Below, piece by piece: positions 19,454 through 30,575 of a stretch of DNA of 64,000 nucleotides. Below the pieces are notes generated by a model. The model searched no databases. It was not told the origin of the DNA and saw only the letters and a program-made list of their open reading frames with translations. The first letter of the stretch is position 1; each line of letters begins with the position of its first letter. This stretch comes from a phage. The stretch is from sequence record PZ452594.1; one strand, given 5' to 3'. Position numbers and translations under genes: made by a program.

Positions 19454-19461
19454 TATAAATA
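19454..19461 (+). promoter_or_regulatory. late promoter TATAAATA for gene 34
   Basis: Exact TATAAATA ~35 nt upstream of the gene 34 ATG with SD GGAG. Confidence 0.6.
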
Positions 19462-19495: not shown

Positions 19496-22400
19496 ATGGC
19501 CGAGATTAAAAGAAAGTTCAGAGCAGAAGATGGTCTGGACGCAGGTGGTGATAAAATAATCAACGTAGCTTTAGCTGATCGTACCGTAGGAACTGACGGT
19601 GTTAACGTTGATTACTTAATTCAAGAAAACACAGTTCAACAATATGATCCAACTCGTGGATATTTAAAAGATTTTGTAATCATTTATGATAACCGCTTTT
19701 GGGCTGCTATAAATGATATTCCAAAACCGGCAGGAGCTTTTAATAGCGGACGCTGGAGAGCATTACGTACCGATGCTAACTGGATTACGGTTTCATCTGG
19801 TTCATATCAATTAAAATCCGGTGAAGCTATTTCGGTTAACACCGCAGCTGGAAATGACATCACGTTTACTTTACCATCTTCTCCAATTGATGGTGATACT
19901 ATCGTTCTCCAAGATATTGGAGGAAAACCTGGAGTTAACCAAGTTTTAATTGTAGCTCCAGTGCAAAGTATTGTAAACTTCAGAGGCGAGCAAGTACGTT
20001 CAGTACTAATGACTCATCCAAAGTCACAGTTAGTTTTAATTTTTAGTAATCGTCTGTGGCAAATGTATGTTGCTGATTATAGTAGAGAAGCTATAGTTGT
20101 AACACCAGCAAGTCTCTATCAGGCGCAATCTAATGATTTTATCGTACGTAGATTTACTTCTGCTGCACCAATTAATGTTAAACTTCCAAGATTTGCTAAT
20201 CATGGCGATATTATTAATTTCGTTGATTTAGATAAACTGAATCCACTTTATCATACAATTGTTACTACATACGATGAAACGACTTCAGTACAAGAAGTTG
20301 GAACTCATTCCATTGAAGGCCGTACATCGATTGACGGTTTCTTGATGTTTGATGATAATGAGAAATTGTGGAGATTGTTTGACGGGGATAGTAAAGCGCG
20401 TTTACGCATTATAACGACTAATTCTAATATTCGTCCAAACGAAGAAGTTATGGTATTTGGTGCGAATAACGGAACAACTCAAACAATTGAGCTTCAGCTT
20501 CCAACTAATATTTCTGTTGGTGATACTGTTAAAATTTCCATGAATTACATGAGAAAAGGACAAACAGTTAAAATCAAAGCTGCCGGTGAAGATAAAATTG
20601 CTTCTTCAGTTCAATTACTGCAATTCCCAAAACGCTCAGAATATCCGCCTGAAGCTGAATGGGTTACAGTCCAAGAATTAGTTTTTAACGGTGAAACTAA
20701 TTATGTACCAGTTTTAGAACTTGCTTATATTGAAGATTCTGATGGAAAATATTGGGTTGTACAGCAAAACGTTCCAACCGTAGAAAGAGTAGACTCTTTA
20801 AATGATTCTACTAGAGCAAGATTAGGCGTAATTGCTTTAGCTACACAAGCTCAAGCTAATGTCGATTTAGAAAATTCTCCACAAAAAGAATTAGCAATTA
20901 CTCCAGAAACATTAGCTAACCGTACTGCTACTGAAACTCGTAGAGGTATCGCAAGAATAGCAACTACTGCTCAAGTGAATCAGAACACCACATTCTCTTT
21001 TGCTGATGACCTTATCATCACTCCTAAAAAGCTGAATGAAAGAACTGCTACAGAAACTCGCAGAGGTGTCGCAGAAATTGCTACGCAGCAAGAAACTAAT
21101 ACAGGTACTGATGATACTACAATCATTACTCCTAAAAAGCTTCAAGCTCGTCAAGGTTCTGAATCATTATCTGGTATTGTAACTTTTGTATCTACGGCGG
21201 GTGCTACTCCAGCTTCTAGTCGTGAATTAAATGGTACAAATGTTTATAATAAAAACACTAATAACTTAGTTGTTTCACCTAAAGCCTTGGATCAGTATAA
21301 AGCTACTCCAACACAGCAAGGTGCAGTAATTTTAGCAGTTGAAAGTGAAGTAATTGCTGGACAAAGTCAGGAAGGATGGACAAATGCTGTTGTAACGCCA
21401 GAAACGTTACATAAAAAGACATCAACTGATGGAAGAATTGGTTTAATTGAAATTGCTACGCAAAGTGAAGTTAATACAGGAACTGATTATACTCGTGCAG
21501 TCACTCCTAAAACTTTAAATGACCGTAAAGCAACTGAAAGTTTAAGTGGTATAGCTGAAATTGCTACGCAAGTTGAATTCGACGCAGGCGTCGACGATAC
21601 TCGTATCTCTACACCATTAAAAATTAAAACCAGATTTAATAGTACTGATCGTACTTCTGTTGTTGCTCTATCTGGATTAGTTGAATCAGGAACTCTCTGG
21701 GACCATTATACACTTAATATTCTTGAAGCAAATGAGACACAGCGTGGTACACTTCGTATAGCTACACAAGTTGAAGCTGCTGCAGGAACATTAGATAATG
21801 TTTTAATAACTCCTAAAAAGCTTTTAGGTACTAAATCTACTGAAGCACAGGAAGGTGTTATTAAAGTTGCAACCCAGTCTGAAACTGTGACTGGAACGTC
21901 AGCGAACACTGCTGTATCTCCAAAAAATTTAAAATGGATTGTGCAGAGTGAACCTACTTGGGCAGCTACTACTGCGATAAGAGGTTTTGTTAAAACTTCA
22001 TCTGGTTCAATTACATTCGTTGGTAATGATACAGTCGGTTCGACCCAAGATTTAGAACTGTATGAGAAAAATAGCTATGCGGTATCACCATATGAATTAA
22101 ACCGTGTATTAGCAAATTATTTGCCGTTAAAAGCAAAAGCTGCTGATACAAATTTATTGGATGGTCTAGATTCATCTCAGTTCATTCGTAGGGATATTGC
22201 ACAGACGGTTAATGGTTCACTAACCTTAACCCAACAAACGAATCTGAGTGCCCCTCTTGTATCATCTAGTACTGCTACGTTTGGTGGTTCAGTTTCGGCA
22301 AATAGTACATTAACTATTTCTAATACTGGAACGACTTCTTCTCGATTTACATTTGAGAAAGGTCCTGCTTCTGGTAGTAATGCTGATTCTGCATTGTATG

Positions 22401-23368
22401 TTCGTGTATGGGGTAATAAGTACAGCGGCGGTTCTGATGTAACTCGTGCAACGATTATAGAATTCTCTGATGCTACCGGCTCTCATTTCTATTCTCAAAG
22501 AGATACGTCAAATAATGTGTTGTTCAACATTTCAGGTACGATGCAATCAGTCAACGCTAACGTTCGTGGTGTTCTGAACGTTACAGGTGTCTCAACGTTT
22601 AATAGTTCAGTTACAGCCAATGGTGAATTCATTAGCAAGTCTGCAAATGCTTTCAGAGCAATAAATGGTGATTATGGATTCTTTATCAGGAATGATGGCG
22701 GTAGCACATATTTTATGCTTACTGCATCTGGTGATCAGACTGGCGGATTTAATGGATTACGTCCATTATCAATTAATAATGCATCTGGCCAAGTAACGAT
22801 TGGTGAAAGCTTAATCATTGCCAAAGGTGCTACTATAAATTCAGGTGGTTTGACTGTTAACTCGAGAATTCGTTCTCAGGGTACTAAAACATCTGATTTA
22901 TACACCCGTGCACCAACATCTGATACTGTAGGATTCTGGTCAATTGATATTAACGATTCAGCCACTTATAACCAGTTTCCGGGTTATTTTAAAATGGTTG
23001 AAAAAACTAATGAAGTGACTGGGCTTCCATACTTAGAACGTGGAGAAGAAGTTAAATCTCCTGGTACACTGACTCAGTTTGGTAACACACTTGATTCGCT
23101 TTACCAAGATTGGATTACTTATCCAACGACGCCAGAAGCGCGTACCACTCGCTGGACACGTACATGGCAGAAAACCAAAAACTCTTGGTCAAGTTTTGTT
23201 CAGGTATTTGACGGAGGTAACCCTCCTCAACCATCTGATATCGGTGCTTTACCATCTGATAATGCTACAATGGGGAATCTTACTATTCGTGATTTCTTGC
23301 GAATTGGTAATGTTCGCATTGTTCCTGACCCAGTGAATAAAACGGTTAAATTTGAATGGGTTGAATAA
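19496..23368 (+). CDS. 34: gp34 long tail fibre proximal subunit
   Basis: 1290-aa ORF; length, position after rnh and internal repeat architecture match T-even gp34. Confidence 0.93.
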   Translation: MAEIKRKFRAEDGLDAGGDKIINVALADRTVGTDGVNVDYLIQENTVQQYDPTRGYLKDFVIIYDNRFWAAINDIPKPAGAFNSGRWRALRTDANWITVSSGSYQLKSGEAISVNTAAGNDITFTLPSSPIDGDTIVLQDIGGKPGVNQVLIVAPVQSIVNFRGEQVRSVLMTHPKSQLVLIFSNRLWQMYVADYSREAIVVTPASLYQAQSNDFIVRRFTSAAPINVKLPRFANHGDIINFVDLDKLNPLYHTIVTTYDETTSVQEVGTHSIEGRTSIDGFLMFDDNEKLWRLFDGDSKARLRIITTNSNIRPNEEVMVFGANNGTTQTIELQLPTNISVGDTVKISMNYMRKGQTVKIKAAGEDKIASSVQLLQFPKRSEYPPEAEWVTVQELVFNGETNYVPVLELAYIEDSDGKYWVVQQNVPTVERVDSLNDSTRARLGVIALATQAQANVDLENSPQKELAITPETLANRTATETRRGIARIATTAQVNQNTTFSFADDLIITPKKLNERTATETRRGVAEIATQQETNTGTDDTTIITPKKLQARQGSESLSGIVTFVSTAGATPASSRELNGTNVYNKNTNNLVVSPKALDQYKATPTQQGAVILAVESEVIAGQSQEGWTNAVVTPETLHKKTSTDGRIGLIEIATQSEVNTGTDYTRAVTPKTLNDRKATESLSGIAEIATQVEFDAGVDDTRISTPLKIKTRFNSTDRTSVVALSGLVESGTLWDHYTLNILEANETQRGTLRIATQVEAAAGTLDNVLITPKKLLGTKSTEAQEGVIKVATQSETVTGTSANTAVSPKNLKWIVQSEPTWAATTAIRGFVKTSSGSITFVGNDTVGSTQDLELYEKNSYAVSPYELNRVLANYLPLKAKAADTNLLDGLDSSQFIRRDIAQTVNGSLTLTQQTNLSAPLVSSSTATFGGSVSANSTLTISNTGTTSSRFTFEKGPASGSNADSALYVRVWGNKYSGGSDVTRATIIEFSDATGSHFYSQRDTSNNVLFNISGTMQSVNANVRGVLNVTGVSTFNSSVTANGEFISKSANAFRAINGDYGFFIRNDGGSTYFMLTASGDQTGGFNGLRPLSINNASGQVTIGESLIIAKGATINSGGLTVNSRIRSQGTKTSDLYTRAPTSDTVGFWSIDINDSATYNQFPGYFKMVEKTNEVTGLPYLERGEEVKSPGTLTQFGNTLDSLYQDWITYPTTPEARTTRWTRTWQKTKNSWSSFVQVFDGGNPPQPSDIGALPSDNATMGNLTIRDFLRIGNVRIVPDPVNKTVKFEWVE
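20860..21960 (+). repeat. tandem ~30-33-aa coding repeats inside gene 34
   Basis: At least eight units of the form TATETRRG(I/V)A.IAT...N(T)GTD.T.ITPKKL. Confidence 0.7.
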
Positions 23369-23376
23369 GAGGTATT

Positions 23377-24492
23377 ATGGAAAAATTTATGGCAGAGTTT
23401 GGACAAGGATATGTCCAAACGCCATTTTTATCGGAAAGCAATTCAGTAAGATACAAAATAAGCATAGCGGGTTCTTGCCCGCTTTCTACAGCAGGACCAT
23501 ACGTTAAATTTCAGGATAATCCTGTAGGAAGTCAAACATTTAGCGCAGGTCTTCATTTAAGAGTTTTTGACCCTTCCACGGGAGCATTAGTTGATAGTAA
23601 GTCATATTCTTTTTCGACTTCAAATGATACTACATCTGCTGCTTTTGTTAGTTTCATGAATTCTATTTCAAGCAATAGACTTGTTGCTATATTAACTAAC
23701 GGAAAGGTTAATTTTCCTCCTGAAGTAGTATCTTGGTTAAGAACCGCCGGAACGTCTGCCTTTCCATCTGATTCTATATTGTCAAGATTTGACGTATCAT
23801 ATGCTGCTTTTTATACTTCTTCTAAAAGAGCTATTGCATTAGAGCATGTTAAACTGAGTAATAGAAAAAGCACAGATGATTATCAAACTATTTTAGATGT
23901 TGTATTTGACAGTTTAGAAGACGTCGGAGCTACCGGGTTTCCAAGAAGAACGTATGAAAGTGTTGAGCAATTTATGTCGGCAGTCGGTGGAACTAATAAC
24001 GAAATTGCGAGATTGCCAACTTCAGCTGCTATAAGTAAATTATCTGATTATAATTTAATTCCTGGTGATGTTCTTTATCTTAAAGCACAGCTATATGCTG
24101 ATGCTGATTTACTTGCTCTTGGAACTACAAATATATCTATCCGTTTTTATAATGCATCTAATGGATATATTTCCTCGACACAAGCTGAGTTTACTGGGCA
24201 AGCTGGGTCATGGGAATTAAAGGAAGATTATGTAGTTGTTCCAGAAAATGCAGTAGGATTTACGATATATGCACAAAGAACTGCACAAGCTGGTCAAGGC
24301 GGAATGAGGAACTTAAGCTTTTCTGAGGTATCAAGAAATGGCGGTATTTCAAAACCTGCTGAATTTGGCGTCAACGGTATTCGTGTTAATTATATCTGTG
24401 AATCTGCTTCACCTCCGGATATAATGGTACTTCCTACACAAGCATCGTCTAAAACTGGTAAAGTGTTTGGGCAAGAATTTAGAGAAGTTTAA
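23377..24492 (+). CDS. 35: gp35 long tail fibre hinge protein
   Basis: 371-aa ORF immediately after gene 34. Confidence 0.85.
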   Translation: MEKFMAEFGQGYVQTPFLSESNSVRYKISIAGSCPLSTAGPYVKFQDNPVGSQTFSAGLHLRVFDPSTGALVDSKSYSFSTSNDTTSAAFVSFMNSISSNRLVAILTNGKVNFPPEVVSWLRTAGTSAFPSDSILSRFDVSYAAFYTSSKRAIALEHVKLSNRKSTDDYQTILDVVFDSLEDVGATGFPRRTYESVEQFMSAVGGTNNEIARLPTSAAISKLSDYNLIPGDVLYLKAQLYADADLLALGTTNISIRFYNASNGYISSTQAEFTGQAGSWELKEDYVVVPENAVGFTIYAQRTAQAGQGGMRNLSFSEVSRNGGISKPAEFGVNGIRVNYICESASPPDIMVLPTQASSKTGKVFGQEFREV

Positions 24493-24497
24493 ATTGA

Positions 24498-24520
24498 GGG
24501 AGCCTTCGGGTTCCCTTTTT
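24498..24520 (+). terminator. plus-strand intrinsic terminator / stabilising hairpin after gene 35
   Basis: GGGAGCC / TTCG / GGTTCCC followed by TTTTTCTTT. Confidence 0.55.
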
Positions 24521-24523
24521 CTT

Positions 24524-24531
24524 TATAAATA
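24524..24531 (+). promoter_or_regulatory. late promoter TATAAATA for genes 36-37
   Basis: Exact TATAAATA 24 nt upstream of the gene 36 ATG. Confidence 0.6.
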
Positions 24532-24554: not shown

Positions 24555-25220
24555 ATGGCTGATTTAAAAGTAGGTTCAACAACCGGAGGCTCTGTCATTT
24601 GGCATCAAGGAAATTTTCCATTGAATCCAGCCGGTGACGATGTACTCTATAAATCATTTAAAATATATTCAGAATATAATAAACCACAAGCTGCTGATAA
24701 CGATTTCGTTTCTAAAGCTAATGGTGGTACTTATGCATCAAAGGTAACATTTAACAGTGGCGTGCAAATACCATATGCTGTAAACAATACAAACCAAAGC
24801 GGTATTTATCCTGGCAATGGTGATGCTGCTACTTTTGATACAGCAAATATTGATATTGTTTCATGGTATGGCATTGGTTTTAAATCATCACAAGGATCTG
24901 CAGGTAGAACTGTTGTTGTTAACACTCGTACCGGTGATATCAGCACTAAAGGTGGTATTTATGCAATCGGACCCGTCCGTTCTAACGTTACCGCTCCAGT
25001 TGCAGCAAATGACCTTACTAGAAAGGACTATGTTGATGGAGCAATAAATACTGTTACGGCAAATGCGAACTCTAGAGTGTTGCGTTCTGGCGACACTATG
25101 ACAGGTAATTTAACCGCACCAAACTTTTTCTCGCAGAATCCTGCATCTCAACCTTCACACGTTCCACGATTTGACCAAATCGTAATTAAGGATTCTGTTC
25201 AAGATTTCGGCTATTATTAA
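24555..25220 (+). CDS. 36: gp36 long tail fibre distal connector
   Basis: 221-aa ORF; length and position as in T4. Confidence 0.85.
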
Positions 25221-25228
25221 GAGGACTT

Positions 25229-28200
25229 ATGGCTACTTTAAAACAAATACAATTTAAAAGAAGCAAAACCGCAGGTGCACGTCCTGCTGCTTCAGTATTA
25301 GCCGAAGGTGAATTGGCTATAAACTTAAAAGATAGAACAATTTTTACTAAAGATGATTCAGGAAATATCATTGATCTAGGTATTGCTAAAGGCGGTCAAA
25401 TTGATGGAAATGTAACTATTGATGGAACTTTACGCGTCAATGGACCAATAAACAACTTTGGAAATTTTTCTACAAATGGTACTATTACGGCAAGTAATAT
25501 TGTTTCTGCTACAGTATTCAGATCAACATCCGGTTCATTTTATACAAGAGCAATAAATGATACTGCAAATGCCCATCTTTGGTTTGAAAATACAAATGGC
25601 TCAGAACGTGGCGTTTTATATTCAAAACCGCAGTCTGAAAATGAAGGCGTAATTACAATGCGTGTTCGTCAAGGAACCGCTGCGGGAGCTCAAAATTCAG
25701 AATTTCATTTCATTTCTACTGATGGCGGTATCTTCCAGGCACGTAAGTTAACTGCTTTAACTTCTATTAGTACACCAACTATTAGTGTTAATTTAATTAA
25801 TCATGATTCTAAATCATTTGGACAATACGATTCACAATCTTTGGTTAACTATGTTTATCCTGGAACTGGTGAAACAAATGGCGTAAACTATCTTCGTAAA
25901 GTTCGCGCTAAGTCCGGTGGTACAATTTATCATGAAATTGTTACTGCCCAAACAGGCCTGGCTGATGAAGTTTCTTGGTGGACTGGTAATACACCGTTAT
26001 TTAAACTATATGGTATTCGTAACGACGGTAGAATGATTATTCGCAATAGCTTGGCCATTGGTACTGTGACGCAAGGGTTTCCGTCAAGCGATTATGGAAA
26101 TGTTGGGGCACTAGGAAATATATTTCTTGCTTTAGGTGATAATGGAACTGGTCTAGTTTATAGAAAAACCGGCGTATTTGATTTTGTTGGTTCTGGTTTA
26201 TCTTTGGCATCTATTACACCTGATAGTTTCCGTAGTACCCGTAAAGCAATTTTTGGTCGTTCCGAGGACCAAGGTACAACATGGATTATGCCTGGCACTA
26301 ATGCTGCTTTCTTGTCTGTTCAAACACAAGCTGATACTAACAATGCTGGAGACGGGCAAACTCATATTGGGTACAATGCTGACGGTAAAATGAGTCATTA
26401 TTTCCGCGGTAAAGGCAAAACTAATATTAATACTCAGGAAGGTGTGGACGTTAACCCTGGTATTTTAAAATTGGTAACTGGTTCTAATAACGTACAGTTT
26501 TATGCTAACGGAACAGTATCTTCAATACAAAGAATTAAATTTGATAATGGATTAGTTCTTACTGGTGCTAGACCCGATGGTATTCAACTTGACGCTCCTA
26601 CAACAACAGATGGCACTAAAACTATATTGTGGGCCGGTGGTACTCGCGCAGGTCAGAATAAAAGTTATGTATCTATCAAAGCATGGGGTAATGCCTTTAA
26701 CGCATCTGGCGATCGTTCCCGTGAAACAGTTTTTGAGGTAGGTGATGGGCAAGGTTACCATTTTTATTCTCAACGTGTAGCTCCTGCGCCTGGTTCGACT
26801 GTCGGGCCTATTCAACTACGAGTTAATGGTGGTTTATTAACTTCAGGTAGTATTGTTGCTTCTGGTTCTATTACAACCGAATCTTCTTTGAGTGTTAATA
26901 ATGGCATGTCAGTAAACGGTGAATTAAAGGTTGGTGGTACCGCAGATAACTTCCGTATTTGGAACGCTAAATACGGCGCTATTTTCCGTCGTTCAGAAGA
27001 TTCCTTGTATATAATTCCTACAGCCATTAACCAAGGCGAAAGCGGTGGAATAAGCGATATAAGACCGTTCAGTATTAACCTTGGCACTGGCTCTGTTGTA
27101 ATGGGTAACCATACTCAAGCGGGTAAAAACCTTTTCACGGTTGATAACGTTTCTAAATTAGTACAAACTGATGTTCGTTTCCGTGTTAACATGGATTCCG
27201 ACGGTATTGTTTTGAATGCTTCTTCTCAAGCAGCGTCTAACTTTATCCAAGGACGTAAAGCGGATGTTACAAAATGGTATCTCGGTATTGGCGACGGTGG
27301 TAACGTTGTTCGTTTACATAACTATACCTATTCCCACGGTATTGCATTAAACTCTGATACTGTAGATATTACTAAGCCTCTTAAAATTAATAATATTCGA
27401 ATTGGTACAGATGGCAACATCACAGGTGGTACTGATAATTTTGCCAATTTAAATACAACGTTAAACAATAAAGTCAATGTTGGTGGTTGGTCAGGCGGAG
27501 CTACAACTGGGTGGTATAAGTTTGCGACAGTTAATATTCCTCAATCTACTGGAACAGTATCATTTAAAATATATGGTGGTTCAGGATTTAATTTTAAAAG
27601 TTATGGGCAAGCTTCTGTCGCAGAAATAATTCTTAGAACTGGAAATAATCCTAAAGGACTTAACGCTACATTATGGAACAGAACTTCTGAAGCATTTTCA
27701 CAAATTGCTACAGTTAACACAAGCAATGATACATATGACGTTTATGTTTATGTGGGAGGATATTCAAATGCTTTAGTCGTCGAATATTCATGTACCAGTA
27801 ATAGTACAGTAACTGTTGTTGGTGTTAATGGAGGAATTCAACCTATTGTTGAAACACTTCCAGAAGGTCATGTAGTAGGTAAAACTGTAAGATTATTGAA
27901 TAACATCGATGGAATGTTTGCTGCTGGTGAATCTGATGTTGTTACTCGTGGTGAATTTGTTACCAATAACCAAAAAGGTTTACGCATTAAATCTAGAGGC
28001 AACGATATTGATTCTAATGCTGTTATTATTCGAAATGATGGTGGAAGTTTTTATATTCTAGCTACAGATAAGAATACATCATCAAATCCTGATGCTGCAT
28101 CAGGTAATTGGAATAATTTAAGACCTTTCTCCATTAATATGGCTGATGGTCGCGTTGGTATGAACCATGGTCTAAATATTACCGGCGGTGGCTTGAATGT

Positions 28201-29071
28201 TACTGGTGGCTTGAATGTTACTAGCGGTAATACTAGTTTAGGTAATATCTCGTCTCGTGTAGTAGCAGGTTGGCGAGGAGCGTCTGGTTGGGCTGATAAC
28301 TCGGATACAATGAAATCTAAAATCACCTTTATGGCAGACCATGGGGATTTATCTAATTCAGGCAGTTATTATCCTATTGTAGGTGCATACAGCAACTATG
28401 GTTCAGCAGGTTATCGTCAAACCTTTGAATTTGGATGGGTCGGCTCTGGTACCACCGCTGGGTGGCGAGAAGGTATTATTCGTATTCGCGGAGATAATGC
28501 TAACGGCCAGCAAGCAAGATGGCGCTTTACAATGAACGGTATTTTAGATTGCCCTGGTAAAGTACAGATGCCACAAACAAGCGCATTTGGTGTCAATACA
28601 ACAAATGGATGGGGTGGTAACTCAATTGCGATAGGTGATAGCGATACTGGTTTTAGACAAGTAGGCGATGGGCTTTTAGAAACATGGGCAAACAACGTTA
28701 AGGTCGTTCGTTATACTTCAAGTGAAGTTTATTCCGAGAAAAACGTCAACGCTCCTAACGTTTATATTCGTTCTGATATTCGTTTGAAATCTAATTTCAA
28801 GCCTATTGAAAACGCGCTCGAAAAGGTTGAACAACTTGATGGTTTAATCTATGACAAAGCTGAATATATAGGCGGTGAACCTGTCCAAACAGAAGCAGGT
28901 ATTATAGCTCAAACGTTGCAAGACGTTTTACCAGAAGCCGTCCGTGAAACAGAAGACAGCAAGGGTAATAAAATACTCACTGTTTCTTCTCAAGCCCAGA
29001 TTGCTCTTCTGGTTGAAGCTGTGAAAACACTTTCTTCTCGTGTAAAAGAACTTGAATCTAAACTTATGTAA
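25229..29071 (+). CDS. 37: gp37 long tail fibre distal subunit
   Basis: 1280-aa ORF following 36; C-terminal ~110 aa resemble a fibre chaperone-like domain. Confidence 0.9.
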
Positions 29072-29101
29072 AAGAGGGCTTCGGCCCTCTAAGGATTTTT
29101 A

Positions 29102-29887
29102 ATGGCAATTGTAGGTGTTCCTGGCTGGATTGGCGAATCTGCCGTGAATGAAACTGGACAACGCTGGATGGATGCTGCAATGAGAGCTGTTCGTGTTTCA
29201 GTTCCTGGTTGGATGAGCTCAATGGCTGGACAATCTAAAGAAGTATATTACAGCATTGGTGCTAGTAATTCTTATAATAAAGACACGTTAATAAACTGGA
29301 TAAAAGCCCAAGGCAGTACTCCTGTTGTTATTACTATTACAGGAAATATTGTTTCTCAATCTACTGGTGTTCCATGCTTAGATTTTCCTAGCTCATTAAC
29401 TAATGCATACGTGACACTTAATATCAATTCAGGCGTGCATGTTTGGGGCCGTGGCGGGAATGGCGGAAATAACTCTGCCGGTGGAGCAGGAGGAACTGCA
29501 ATAAATAATGGAATTGGAACTAGATTGCGTATTAACAACAATGGTGTTATCGCAGGAGGCGGTGGCGGCGGTGGAGGCGGATATTATTCTCCTTTTTCAC
29601 AAATGAAATTGACTTTTGGCGGTGGCGGCGGTCGTCCATTTGGTGCTGCTGGCGGGTCTGCTAATATGGAACAGGGCGCTACTGCTGGTACTATTTCTGC
29701 ACCTGGTAAAGGGTCTGTCAATGGTATCTATAATGGCGGGAATGGCGGTGATGCTGGTGCCGCAGGTGGTAAATGTAATATTCGTGGGCAAGGATCAGAA
29801 TATAACGGCGGTGCTGCTGGTAAGGCTGTTACTGGTAATGCTCCAACTTGGACTAAAGTTGGTACAATATATGGTTCAAGAGTATAA
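29102..29887 (+). CDS. 38: gp38 receptor-recognising adhesin (T2 type, glycine-rich)
   Basis: 261 aa with poly-glycine blocks (GGGGGGGGGY, GGGGGRPFGAAGG, NGGNGGDAGAAGG) separated by variable segments. Confidence 0.85.
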   Translation: MAIVGVPGWIGESAVNETGQRWMDAAMRAVRVSVPGWMSSMAGQSKEVYYSIGASNSYNKDTLINWIKAQGSTPVVITITGNIVSQSTGVPCLDFPSSLTNAYVTLNINSGVHVWGRGGNGGNNSAGGAGGTAINNGIGTRLRINNNGVIAGGGGGGGGGYYSPFSQMKLTFGGGGGRPFGAAGGSANMEQGATAGTISAPGKGSVNGIYNGGNGGDAGAAGGKCNIRGQGSEYNGGAAGKAVTGNAPTWTKVGTIYGSRV

Positions 29888-29918: not shown

Positions 29919-30575
29919 ATGGCAGCACCTAGAATATCATTTTCGCCCTCTGATATTCTGTTTGGTGTTCTAGATCGCTTGTTCAAAGATAATGCTACCG
30001 GGAAGGTTCTTGCTTCCCGAGTAGCTGTCGTAATTCTTTTATTTATGATGGCGATTGTTTGGTATAGGGGAGATAGTTTCTTTGAGTACTATAAGCAATC
30101 AAAGTATGAAACATACAGTGAAATTATTGAAAAGGAAAGAAATGCACGCTTTGAATCTGTCGCCCTGGAACAACTCCAGATAGTTCATATATCATCTGAG
30201 GCAGACTTTAGTGCGGTGTATTCTTTCCGCCCTAAAAACTTAAACTATTTTGTTGATATTATAGCATACGAAGGAAGATTACCTTCAACAATAACTGAAA
30301 AATCACTTGGAGGATATCCTGTTGATAAAACTATGGATGAATATACAGTTCATTTAAATGGACGTCATTATTATTCCGATTCAAAATTTGCTTTTTTACC
30401 AACTAAAAAGCCTACTCCCGAAATAAACTACATGTACAGTTGTCCATATTTTAATTTGGATAATATCTATGCTGGAACGATAACCATGTACTGGTATAGA
30501 AATGATCATATAAGTAATGACCGCCTTGAATCAATATGCGCTCAGGCGGCCAGAATATTAGGAAGGGCTAAATAA
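29919..30575 (+). CDS. t: holin
   Basis: 218 aa; single N-terminal transmembrane segment and large periplasmic domain as in T4 T. Confidence 0.92.
   Translation: MAAPRISFSPSDILFGVLDRLFKDNATGKVLASRVAVVILLFMMAIVWYRGDSFFEYYKQSKYETYSEIIEKERNARFESVALEQLQIVHISSEADFSAVYSFRPKNLNYFVDIIAYEGRLPSTITEKSLGGYPVDKTMDEYTVHLNGRHYYSDSKFAFLPTKKPTPEINYMYSCPYFNLDNIYAGTITMYWYRNDHISNDRLESICAQAARILGRAK

Follow-up and report, generated by a model that had tools for sequence, protein, structure and literature searches.

Predicted Tsx-binding long-tail-fibre tip of a T2/T6-like Tequatrovirus, with a Peptidase_S74 chaperone domain in gp37 and a chimeric gp38 adhesin

In phages T2 and T6, according to PMC3157838 (which cites Drexler 1986), the long-tail-fibre protein gp37 undergoes cleavage, after which gp38 caps it. 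FadL/OmpF are the receptors of T2, and Tsx is that of T6. T4 gp37 carries its own receptor-binding tip. The gp38 adhesins combine glycine-rich motifs with hypervariable segments (PMC3157838), and the literature assigns receptor specificity to the variable segments (PMC3157838, PMC12032242). In the summary given in PMC12032242, the structure of the homologous adhesin of phage S16 (a member of a different genus, Gelderlandvirus, reported to bind OmpC) explains this design by a polyglycine type II sandwich from which loops protrude. The S16 gp37 chaperone is reported to cut itself at DLNVS^SDRRIKK, exposing the docking surface for gp38, and cleavage at DVYIR^SDGRLKI is predicted for related Yersinia phages (PMC7917993).

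The window analysed here (the whole stretch of 64,000 nucleotides of phage DNA, sequence record PZ452594.1) is a Tequatrovirus long-tail-fibre locus with the gene order gp34-35-36-37-38-t, in which the flanking DNA shows 96-97% identity with many deposited Tequatrovirus genomes (E. coli, Shigella). The module formed by the end of gene 37 and gene 38 is best read, with a probability of about 93%, as the distal long-tail-fibre tip of a T2/T6-like Tequatrovirus that consists of a self-cleaving gp37 chaperone and a gp38 adhesin and uses Tsx. The coordinates and protein lengths given in an earlier note on this DNA are correct, as is the gp37 motif that it quoted. The genes and expression signals of the locus are as follows.

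19496-23368, plus strand: gp34, from the open reading frame list
23377-24492, plus strand: gp35, from the same list
24524..24531, plus strand: T4-type late promoter box TATAAATA, an exact match 31 nt 5' of the gp36 start
24555-25220, plus strand: gp36, an open reading frame with a match to Pfam Phage_T4_gp36
25229-29071, plus strand: gene 37, precursor of the distal long-tail-fibre subunit, 1280 aa, an open reading frame with matches to Pfam gp37_trimer, Gp34_trimer and Peptidase_S74
29073..29090, plus strand: C(UUCG)G tetraloop hairpin in the gap between genes 37 and 38, read from the sequence (fold -13.4 kcal/mol, z -2.07)
29102-29887, plus strand: gene 38, putative tail-fibre tip adhesin, 261 aa (PF05268 and PF21721)
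29919-30575, plus strand: gene t, holin (PF11031, Phage_holin_T, E 1.1e-116), the conserved 3' neighbour that marks where the variable cassette ends

The promoter box in front of gene 36 likely drives gp36, gp37 and gp38 as a single late unit, and its position presumably agrees with that found in the late transcription units of T4. A second TATAAATA box is located 42 nt 5' of gp34; across the whole window, this pattern shows no enrichment. The scan for sigma-70 promoters also reveals no excess, with 24 sites compared to 27 expected from shuffled sequence. The hairpin between genes 37 and 38, which is additionally flagged by a terminator-like scan, is separated from the gp38 start codon by an AAGGA ribosome-binding site, and another C(UUCG)G hairpin is present in the gp35/gp36 gap. 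Scanning the entire window for tRNAs and Rfam families yields no matches.

The gp38 protein matches the complete models of two Pfam families, GP38 (PF05268, model positions 1-218 of 218, E 3.5e-72, 243.2 bits) and Gp38_N (PF21721, 1-40 of 40, E 8.2e-18, 64.6 bits), the cut-off being 25 bits for each, as well as PHROG 2056 (E 2.3e-105). Residues 8-259 align with 6F45_D, the S16 adhesin of known structure (E 2.7e-49, 49% identity), and similarity to the PP01 gp38 construct 9V85 is also detected (E 1e-33). By contrast, BLASTP finds no similarity to T4 gp38 (183 aa; E 19 over 23 residues), a protein with zero Pfam matches. Judging from these comparisons, gp38 is of the adhesin type and distinct from the T4 gp38 chaperone, in agreement with the earlier note, which had described a protein of 261 aa with poly-glycine blocks that is not the T4 chaperone; by analogy with S16, it is predicted to reside at the fibre tip of the virion and to bind an outer-membrane protein. 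The opposite reading, namely, that gp38 is a T4-type assembly chaperone acting outside the virion while receptor binding resides in gp37 itself, could draw on the location of the gene between gene 37 and gene t, the same as that of T4 gene 38 (the order is also common to T2, T6, RB32, S16 and FriedrichMiescher), and on several database records in which identical proteins are called ‘tail assembly protein’ or ‘distal long tail fiber assembly catalyst’. These labels, however, are annotation carried over from T4; the homology with the adhesin seen on the gp37 tip in the S16 crystal structure (6F45) spans the full length of gp38, and the Collar and Phage_fiber tip domains of T4 gp37 are missing from the gp37 studied here. 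Given the BLASTP result with T4 gp38, the assembly chaperone reading was rejected, and its probability is very low.

The C-terminal part of gp37 contains the following elements.

28748..28771, plus strand: NAPNVYIR, residues 1174-1181, the last eight residues of the predicted mature gp37, delimited by the junction alignment
28772..29068, plus strand: Peptidase_S74 intramolecular chaperone (PF13884), gp37 residues 1182-1280, 99 aa
28772-28774, plus strand: predicted catalytic Ser1182 of the SDIRLK motif
28787-28789, plus strand: predicted catalytic Lys1187 of the same motif

A Pfam search identifies Peptidase_S74 (‘chaperone of endosialidase’) at residues 1182-1239 of gp37, with the model covered from 1 to 58 of 58 positions, E 8.4e-15 and 55.2 bits (cut-off 22 bits). 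The earlier note had declared beforehand that its reading would fall if the gp37 C-terminus gave no chaperone hit in such a profile search; the hit is present, and the motif quoted in that note (residues 1207-1238, nt 28847-28942) is located inside it. In the same search, the positive controls T2 gp37 (3.3e-15) and T6 gp37 (6.6e-10) also contain a C-terminal S74 domain, and in T4 gp37, the negative control, no S74 is found and the Collar and Phage_fiber domains are present instead. In 33 PHROG tail-fibre families, the very C-terminal end matches the 99-aa piece, which is what a portable C-terminal module should show. A PDB sequence search started with this piece alone reaches, below E 0.01, only S16 gp37 (6F45_A) and MYRF, with endoNF and T5 pb1 not reached. 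With NCBIfam, a library geared to bacterial and archaeal proteins, neither the two full proteins gp37 and gp38 nor the chaperone piece yields a match.

The Ser1182/Lys1187 dyad is intact, with the lysine five residues after the serine, which is the spacing of endoNF S911/K916 and MyRF S587/K592, for which the Ser-Lys dyad has been defined (PMC8326128). The SDIRLK motif is in register with SDRRIK of S16 gp37 (6F45_A; the shared form is SDxRxK) and with ADLRAK of the MYRF ICA domain (7DC3, an S587A crystal construct), the pattern across all three being S/A-D-x-R-x-K. The S74 domains of endoNF, the T5 L-shaped tail fibre, the GA-1 neck appendage and MYRF belong to the same Pfam family and resemble the gp37 domain in having the dyad residues five positions apart and in occupying the C-terminus of a trimeric beta-helical fibre. 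They are distant in sequence, however, and in the case of gp37, cleavage would also unmask the dock for a separate adhesin.

NAPNVYIR and the junction residues that follow it are identical in T2, IME339, IsaacDaniel, slur02 and FriedrichMiescher. NAPNVYIR aligns with the ...DLNVS segment that precedes the S16 cut site, as it does with the DVYIR sequence in fPS phages. In T2, gene order and cleavage junction are the same as here and the 99-aa S74 chaperone is near-identical, whereas T6 gp37 has a different, 113-aa S74 variant, with SFSDVYIR before and SDSRLKINKEEL after the junction. The gp37 tip and S74 domain of S16 are homologous to those of the present phage (E 1.5e-10), the S16 chaperone being 112 aa long; the gp37 C-terminal tail aligns with that of S16 and looks helical. 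By analogy with these systems, gp37 is predicted to cut itself between R1181 and S1182. The chaperone-like domain proposed in the earlier note is borne out by the full-length S74 match, albeit with a predicted length of 99 aa rather than about 110 for the released piece, and the starting point given there for the module, 28700, corresponds to gp37 residue 1158, which precedes the predicted cleavage site by 24 residues. Alternatively, this domain could be a degenerate S74 that has lost the protease activity and persists as an uncleaved part of the mature tip, a view compatible with the modest E-values obtained with solved S74-type domains other than that of S16 (0.004-0.014 for MYRF) and with the status of gp37 cleavage as a prediction. 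Such degeneration seems very improbable considering that the Pfam match is full-length and well over the threshold, that both dyad residues are present at the right spacing, that junction and domain are near-identical to those of T2, for which processing is reported, and that, in the S16 work, gp38 docking needs an exposed gp37 tip (PMC7917993).

The gp38 protein has the following features.

29102..29227, plus strand: N-terminal attachment domain, gp38 residues 1-42, T2-type, with Trp9, Trp22 and Trp37 (Gp38_N model 1-40 of 40)
29240..29443, plus strand: middle domain, residues 47-114, counterpart of the S16 gp38 beta-helix domain (aligned with 6F45_D)
29447..29836, plus strand: glycine-rich specificity domain, residues 116-245, T6-type by glycine content and alignments
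gp38 residues 116-131, 152-160, 173-185, 212-223 and 236-245: the five glycine blocks
29582-29617, plus strand: variable segment, residues 161-172
29657-29734, plus strand: variable segment, residues 186-211
29771-29806, plus strand: variable segment, residues 224-235

Trp9 and Trp37 are invariant in a 7-way alignment of adhesins; Trp22 is conserved in six of the seven sequences, being replaced by Cys in IsaacDaniel only, and is invariant in a 4-way alignment. The tryptophans of the attachment domain insert into the gp37 tip, according to the account of the S16 structure cited in PMC7917993. The name of the beta-helix domain follows PMC12032242. Glycine accounts for 33% of residues 115-261 compared to 9.6% of residues 1-114, and the block at 152-160 consists of nine glycines in a row. 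When gp38 is compared with its homologs from T2, T6, RB32, IsaacDaniel and S16, the glycine blocks are invariant (those of S16 are in register) and the segments between them are variable; the numbering of segments used here has no one-to-one correspondence to HVS1-4 of PMC3157838. The suggestion in the earlier note that these segments vary and set specificity agrees with the alignments, as far as variability is concerned, and with the published assignments of specificity. The 49% identity to 6F45_D implies that gp38 would adopt the three-layer polyglycine type II sandwich fold; an AlphaFold2 model of gp38, built from the single sequence without an alignment, has pLDDT 29.6 and pTM 0.25 and is too poor to be used.

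Taken in order, the proposed mechanism would start with the synthesis of gp37 as a precursor of 1280 aa, the last 99 residues of which would act as an S74 intramolecular chaperone. On trimerisation, the chaperone would nucleate folding of the upstream trimeric fibre; the Ser1182/Lys1187 dyad would then sever the Arg1181-Ser1182 bond, releasing the chaperone. The new gp37 C-terminus, ...NAPNVYIR, would provide the platform at the tip to which gp38 docks, one gp38 per fibre. Within the C-terminal half of gp38, the five conserved glycine blocks would form a glycine-rich core from which the variable segments may project as loops contacting the receptor. From homology with the described systems, we infer cleavage, the single gp38 per fibre and the contact of loops with the receptor, as well as the use of Tsx. 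No result of the analysis speaks against the architecture as such.

Comparison with T2 and T6 shows that the two parts of gp38 differ in their affinities. Identity to T2 is 98% over residues 1-46, 63% over residues 47-114 and 77% over residues 1-114 as a whole, against 65%, 34% and 47%, respectively, for T6, in which the attachment and middle domains are of a different subtype. Over residues 115-261, the relationship is reversed, with 54% identity to T2 and 78% to T6, and the contrast is sharpest in the variable segments: 0% compared to 85% at 161-172, 19% compared to 74% at 186-211, and 20% compared to 83% at 224-235. The loops of S16 are different (8-22% identity over the variable segments), and in the 7-way alignment, the segments are also unlike those of gp38 from RB32, a phage that was compared in place of K3 and Ox2 and the record of which annotates similarity to Ox2. 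RB32 is reported to use OmpA/LPS. By these alignments, gp38 is a T2/T6 chimera in which a T2-like attachment domain is joined to a T6-like glycine-rich specificity domain. The T2-type attachment domain goes with a T2-type gp37 end, which fits the lock-and-key pairing of gp37 and gp38 subtypes (PMC3157838). The designation ‘T2-type’ in the earlier note therefore applies to the overall architecture, the gp37 chaperone and the gp38 attachment domain, but not to the specificity domain.

The affinity of the specificity domain bears directly on the receptor. The adhesin could be T2-type in specificity too, recognising FadL and/or OmpF (or OmpA, like K3 and Ox2) rather than Tsx, considering the T2-like gp37 chaperone, the T2-like residues 1-114 of gp38, and the observation that few residue changes can alter the choice of receptor in the gp38 family (PMC3157838). 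The variable segments, however, are T6-like at 74-85%, are only 0-20% identical to those of T2, and do not resemble those of the OmpA/LPS binder RB32, and an identical gp38 occurs in a phage listed as Tsx-dependent. A T2-like specificity was rejected as the best reading on the strength of the variable segments, and it is highly unlikely.

Instead, the primary receptor is most likely the nucleoside channel Tsx, as predicted by homology from the T6-like loops and from the identity of the adhesin to that of Tsx-dependent FriedrichMiescher. The gp38 protein is 100% identical in at least 15 deposited phages, among them FriedrichMiescher (BASEL Bas39), slur02, teqhal, teqsoen, JK1 and JK38. The primary receptor of FriedrichMiescher/Bas39 is listed as Tsx in a supplementary table of PMC8594841, an assignment made for one phage that carries the identical adhesin. 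A single set of variable segments is reported to be common to Tsx binders (PMC3157838), the T6-type class to which gp38 belongs, and the same receptor is reported for closely related Gp38 proteins (PMC12032242). With a T6-like specificity domain, Tsx would be expected rather than FadL/OmpF of T2. The term ‘host-range locus’ used in the earlier note is apt in that the primary receptor appears to be set here, but it is overstated: dependence on the LPS core is tied to the short-tail-fibre allele (PMC8594841), phages with identical Gp38 yet different infection patterns have been noted (PMC12032242), and some T-even phages require more than one receptor, with single residue changes capable of shifting specificity (PMC3157838). 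The fibre context, which differs in the gp37 segment just upstream of the dock, may also influence adsorption.

In contrast to gp38, gene 37 in its full length has no close match, the best nucleotide identity to any deposited phage being 87.9%. Only about 80% of gene 37 can be aligned with that of T2, which encodes a longer protein (1341 aa compared to 1280 aa), and the nucleotide identity is then about 83%. In a sliding comparison, the nearest relative switches along the gene. Just 5' of the dock, at 28605-28755, identity to six aligned relatives is about 63%; the records of KFS-EC3, ECO78 and JK1 match at 92-94% from about 28586 onward; phages with the same adhesin are 97-100% identical over the stretch that starts at about 28900 and takes in gp38 and the holin; and from about 29800 onward, all the relatives compared are 95-100% identical. 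FriedrichMiescher and at least 14 other Tequatrovirus phages carry the same gp38 together with an S74 chaperone and holin at 97-100% nucleotide identity, yet the gp37 shaft and the region before the dock in this group differ strongly from the window, as in FriedrichMiescher and slur02, with 28-63% over 28155-28755 and 97-100% from about 28900. By this comparison, gene 37 is a mosaic of segments common to different T-even phages, and exchange is a known behaviour of the T-even fibre locus (PMC3157838). NAPNVYIR, the 99-aa chaperone and gp38 might together be the smallest adhesin unit that can be exchanged, a portable cassette of about 1.1 kb whose left recombination boundary would be no more than about 30-150 nt away from the cleavage site, a tentative proposal that we rate at somewhat below even odds. 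Were it true, docking would need little beyond the terminal beta-strand, and T-even fibres could be retargeted by a practical design rule. A similar proposal has already been made for the fPS phages (PMC7917993).

Architecture and mechanism, the design of glycine blocks with variable loops, and the adhesin itself have already been described or deposited; for the full-length gp37 mosaic alone, no deposited sequence exceeds 88% nucleotide identity. The value of the analysis lies in annotation, that is, in the identification of the determinant of the primary receptor and in the prediction of Tsx as that receptor. Such a prediction can guide the selection of phages for cocktails and help to foresee resistance that arises by loss of tsx.

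The shaft-encoding part of gene 37 (25229-28770, + strand), the gene for the distal subunit of the long tail fibre, is a patchwork in which the nearest relative switches every few hundred bases, from IME339/IsaacDaniel to slur02 and then to T2. Across gene 37 as a whole, nucleotide identity to any deposited phage stays at or below 88%. Gene 36 contains a divergent patch of 300 nt (24705-25005) that is 46-89% identical to the six relatives compared.

The divergence extends to the part of gene 37 that encodes the fibre tip. In the FriedrichMiescher and slur02 phages, both of which encode a gp38 protein identical to the one in the window, the gp37 tip just 5' of the dock, i.e., the predicted mature end of gp37 (NAPNVYIR) that would carry gp38, is only 28-63% identical at the nucleotide level (region compared: 28155-28900). 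Similarity to the gp37 proteins of these two phages returns near the motif GGNSIAxGDxDTG, and the predicted self-cleavage junction, NAPNVYIR followed by SDIRLK, is the same in all three. Public records of proteins 100% identical to gp38 bear discordant names, namely "tail assembly protein", "distal long tail fiber assembly catalyst", "hypothetical protein" and "tail fiber adhesin"; the labels that mention "assembly" were inherited from the unrelated gp38 of T4.

Two stretches of gp37 (25229-29071, + strand; residues 424-447 and 492-616) match the Gp34_trimer domain. gp37 also matches HCBP_related, a haemolysin-type calcium-binding related model, but weakly (22 bits, with a cut-off of 21.4), and no single stretch passes by itself. 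In the hinge protein gp35 (23377-24492, + strand), residues 58-127 match the ILEI domain (PF15711, FAM3/interleukin-like EMT inducer) above the threshold, with an E-value of 1.4e-8. Given that T4 gp35 produces the same match (E-value 1.1e-8), this similarity is a general property of gp35 and is not peculiar to this phage.

Two intercistronic gaps of the locus contain hairpins that are probably stable hairpins of the T4 type:

24496-24517, + strand: C(UUCG)G tetraloop hairpin, gp35/gp36 gap
29073-29090, + strand: C(UUCG)G tetraloop hairpin, gp37/gp38 gap

The gp37/gp38 hairpin has a predicted folding energy of -13.4 kcal/mol (z -2.07) and is directly followed by an AAGGA ribosome-binding site, with the gp38 start codon 11 nt past the hairpin. 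Scans of the whole window (1-64000) detected no tRNA genes and no Rfam families at the gathering threshold.

The T4 late-promoter motif TATAAATA is not enriched across the window (6 occurrences observed, 9 expected). Two exact copies precede fibre genes:

19454-19461, + strand: late-promoter box, 42 nt 5' of the gp34 start
24524-24531, + strand: late-promoter box, 31 nt 5' of the gp36 start

The placement of these boxes suggests that the fibre genes form two late transcription units, 34-35 and 36-37-38.
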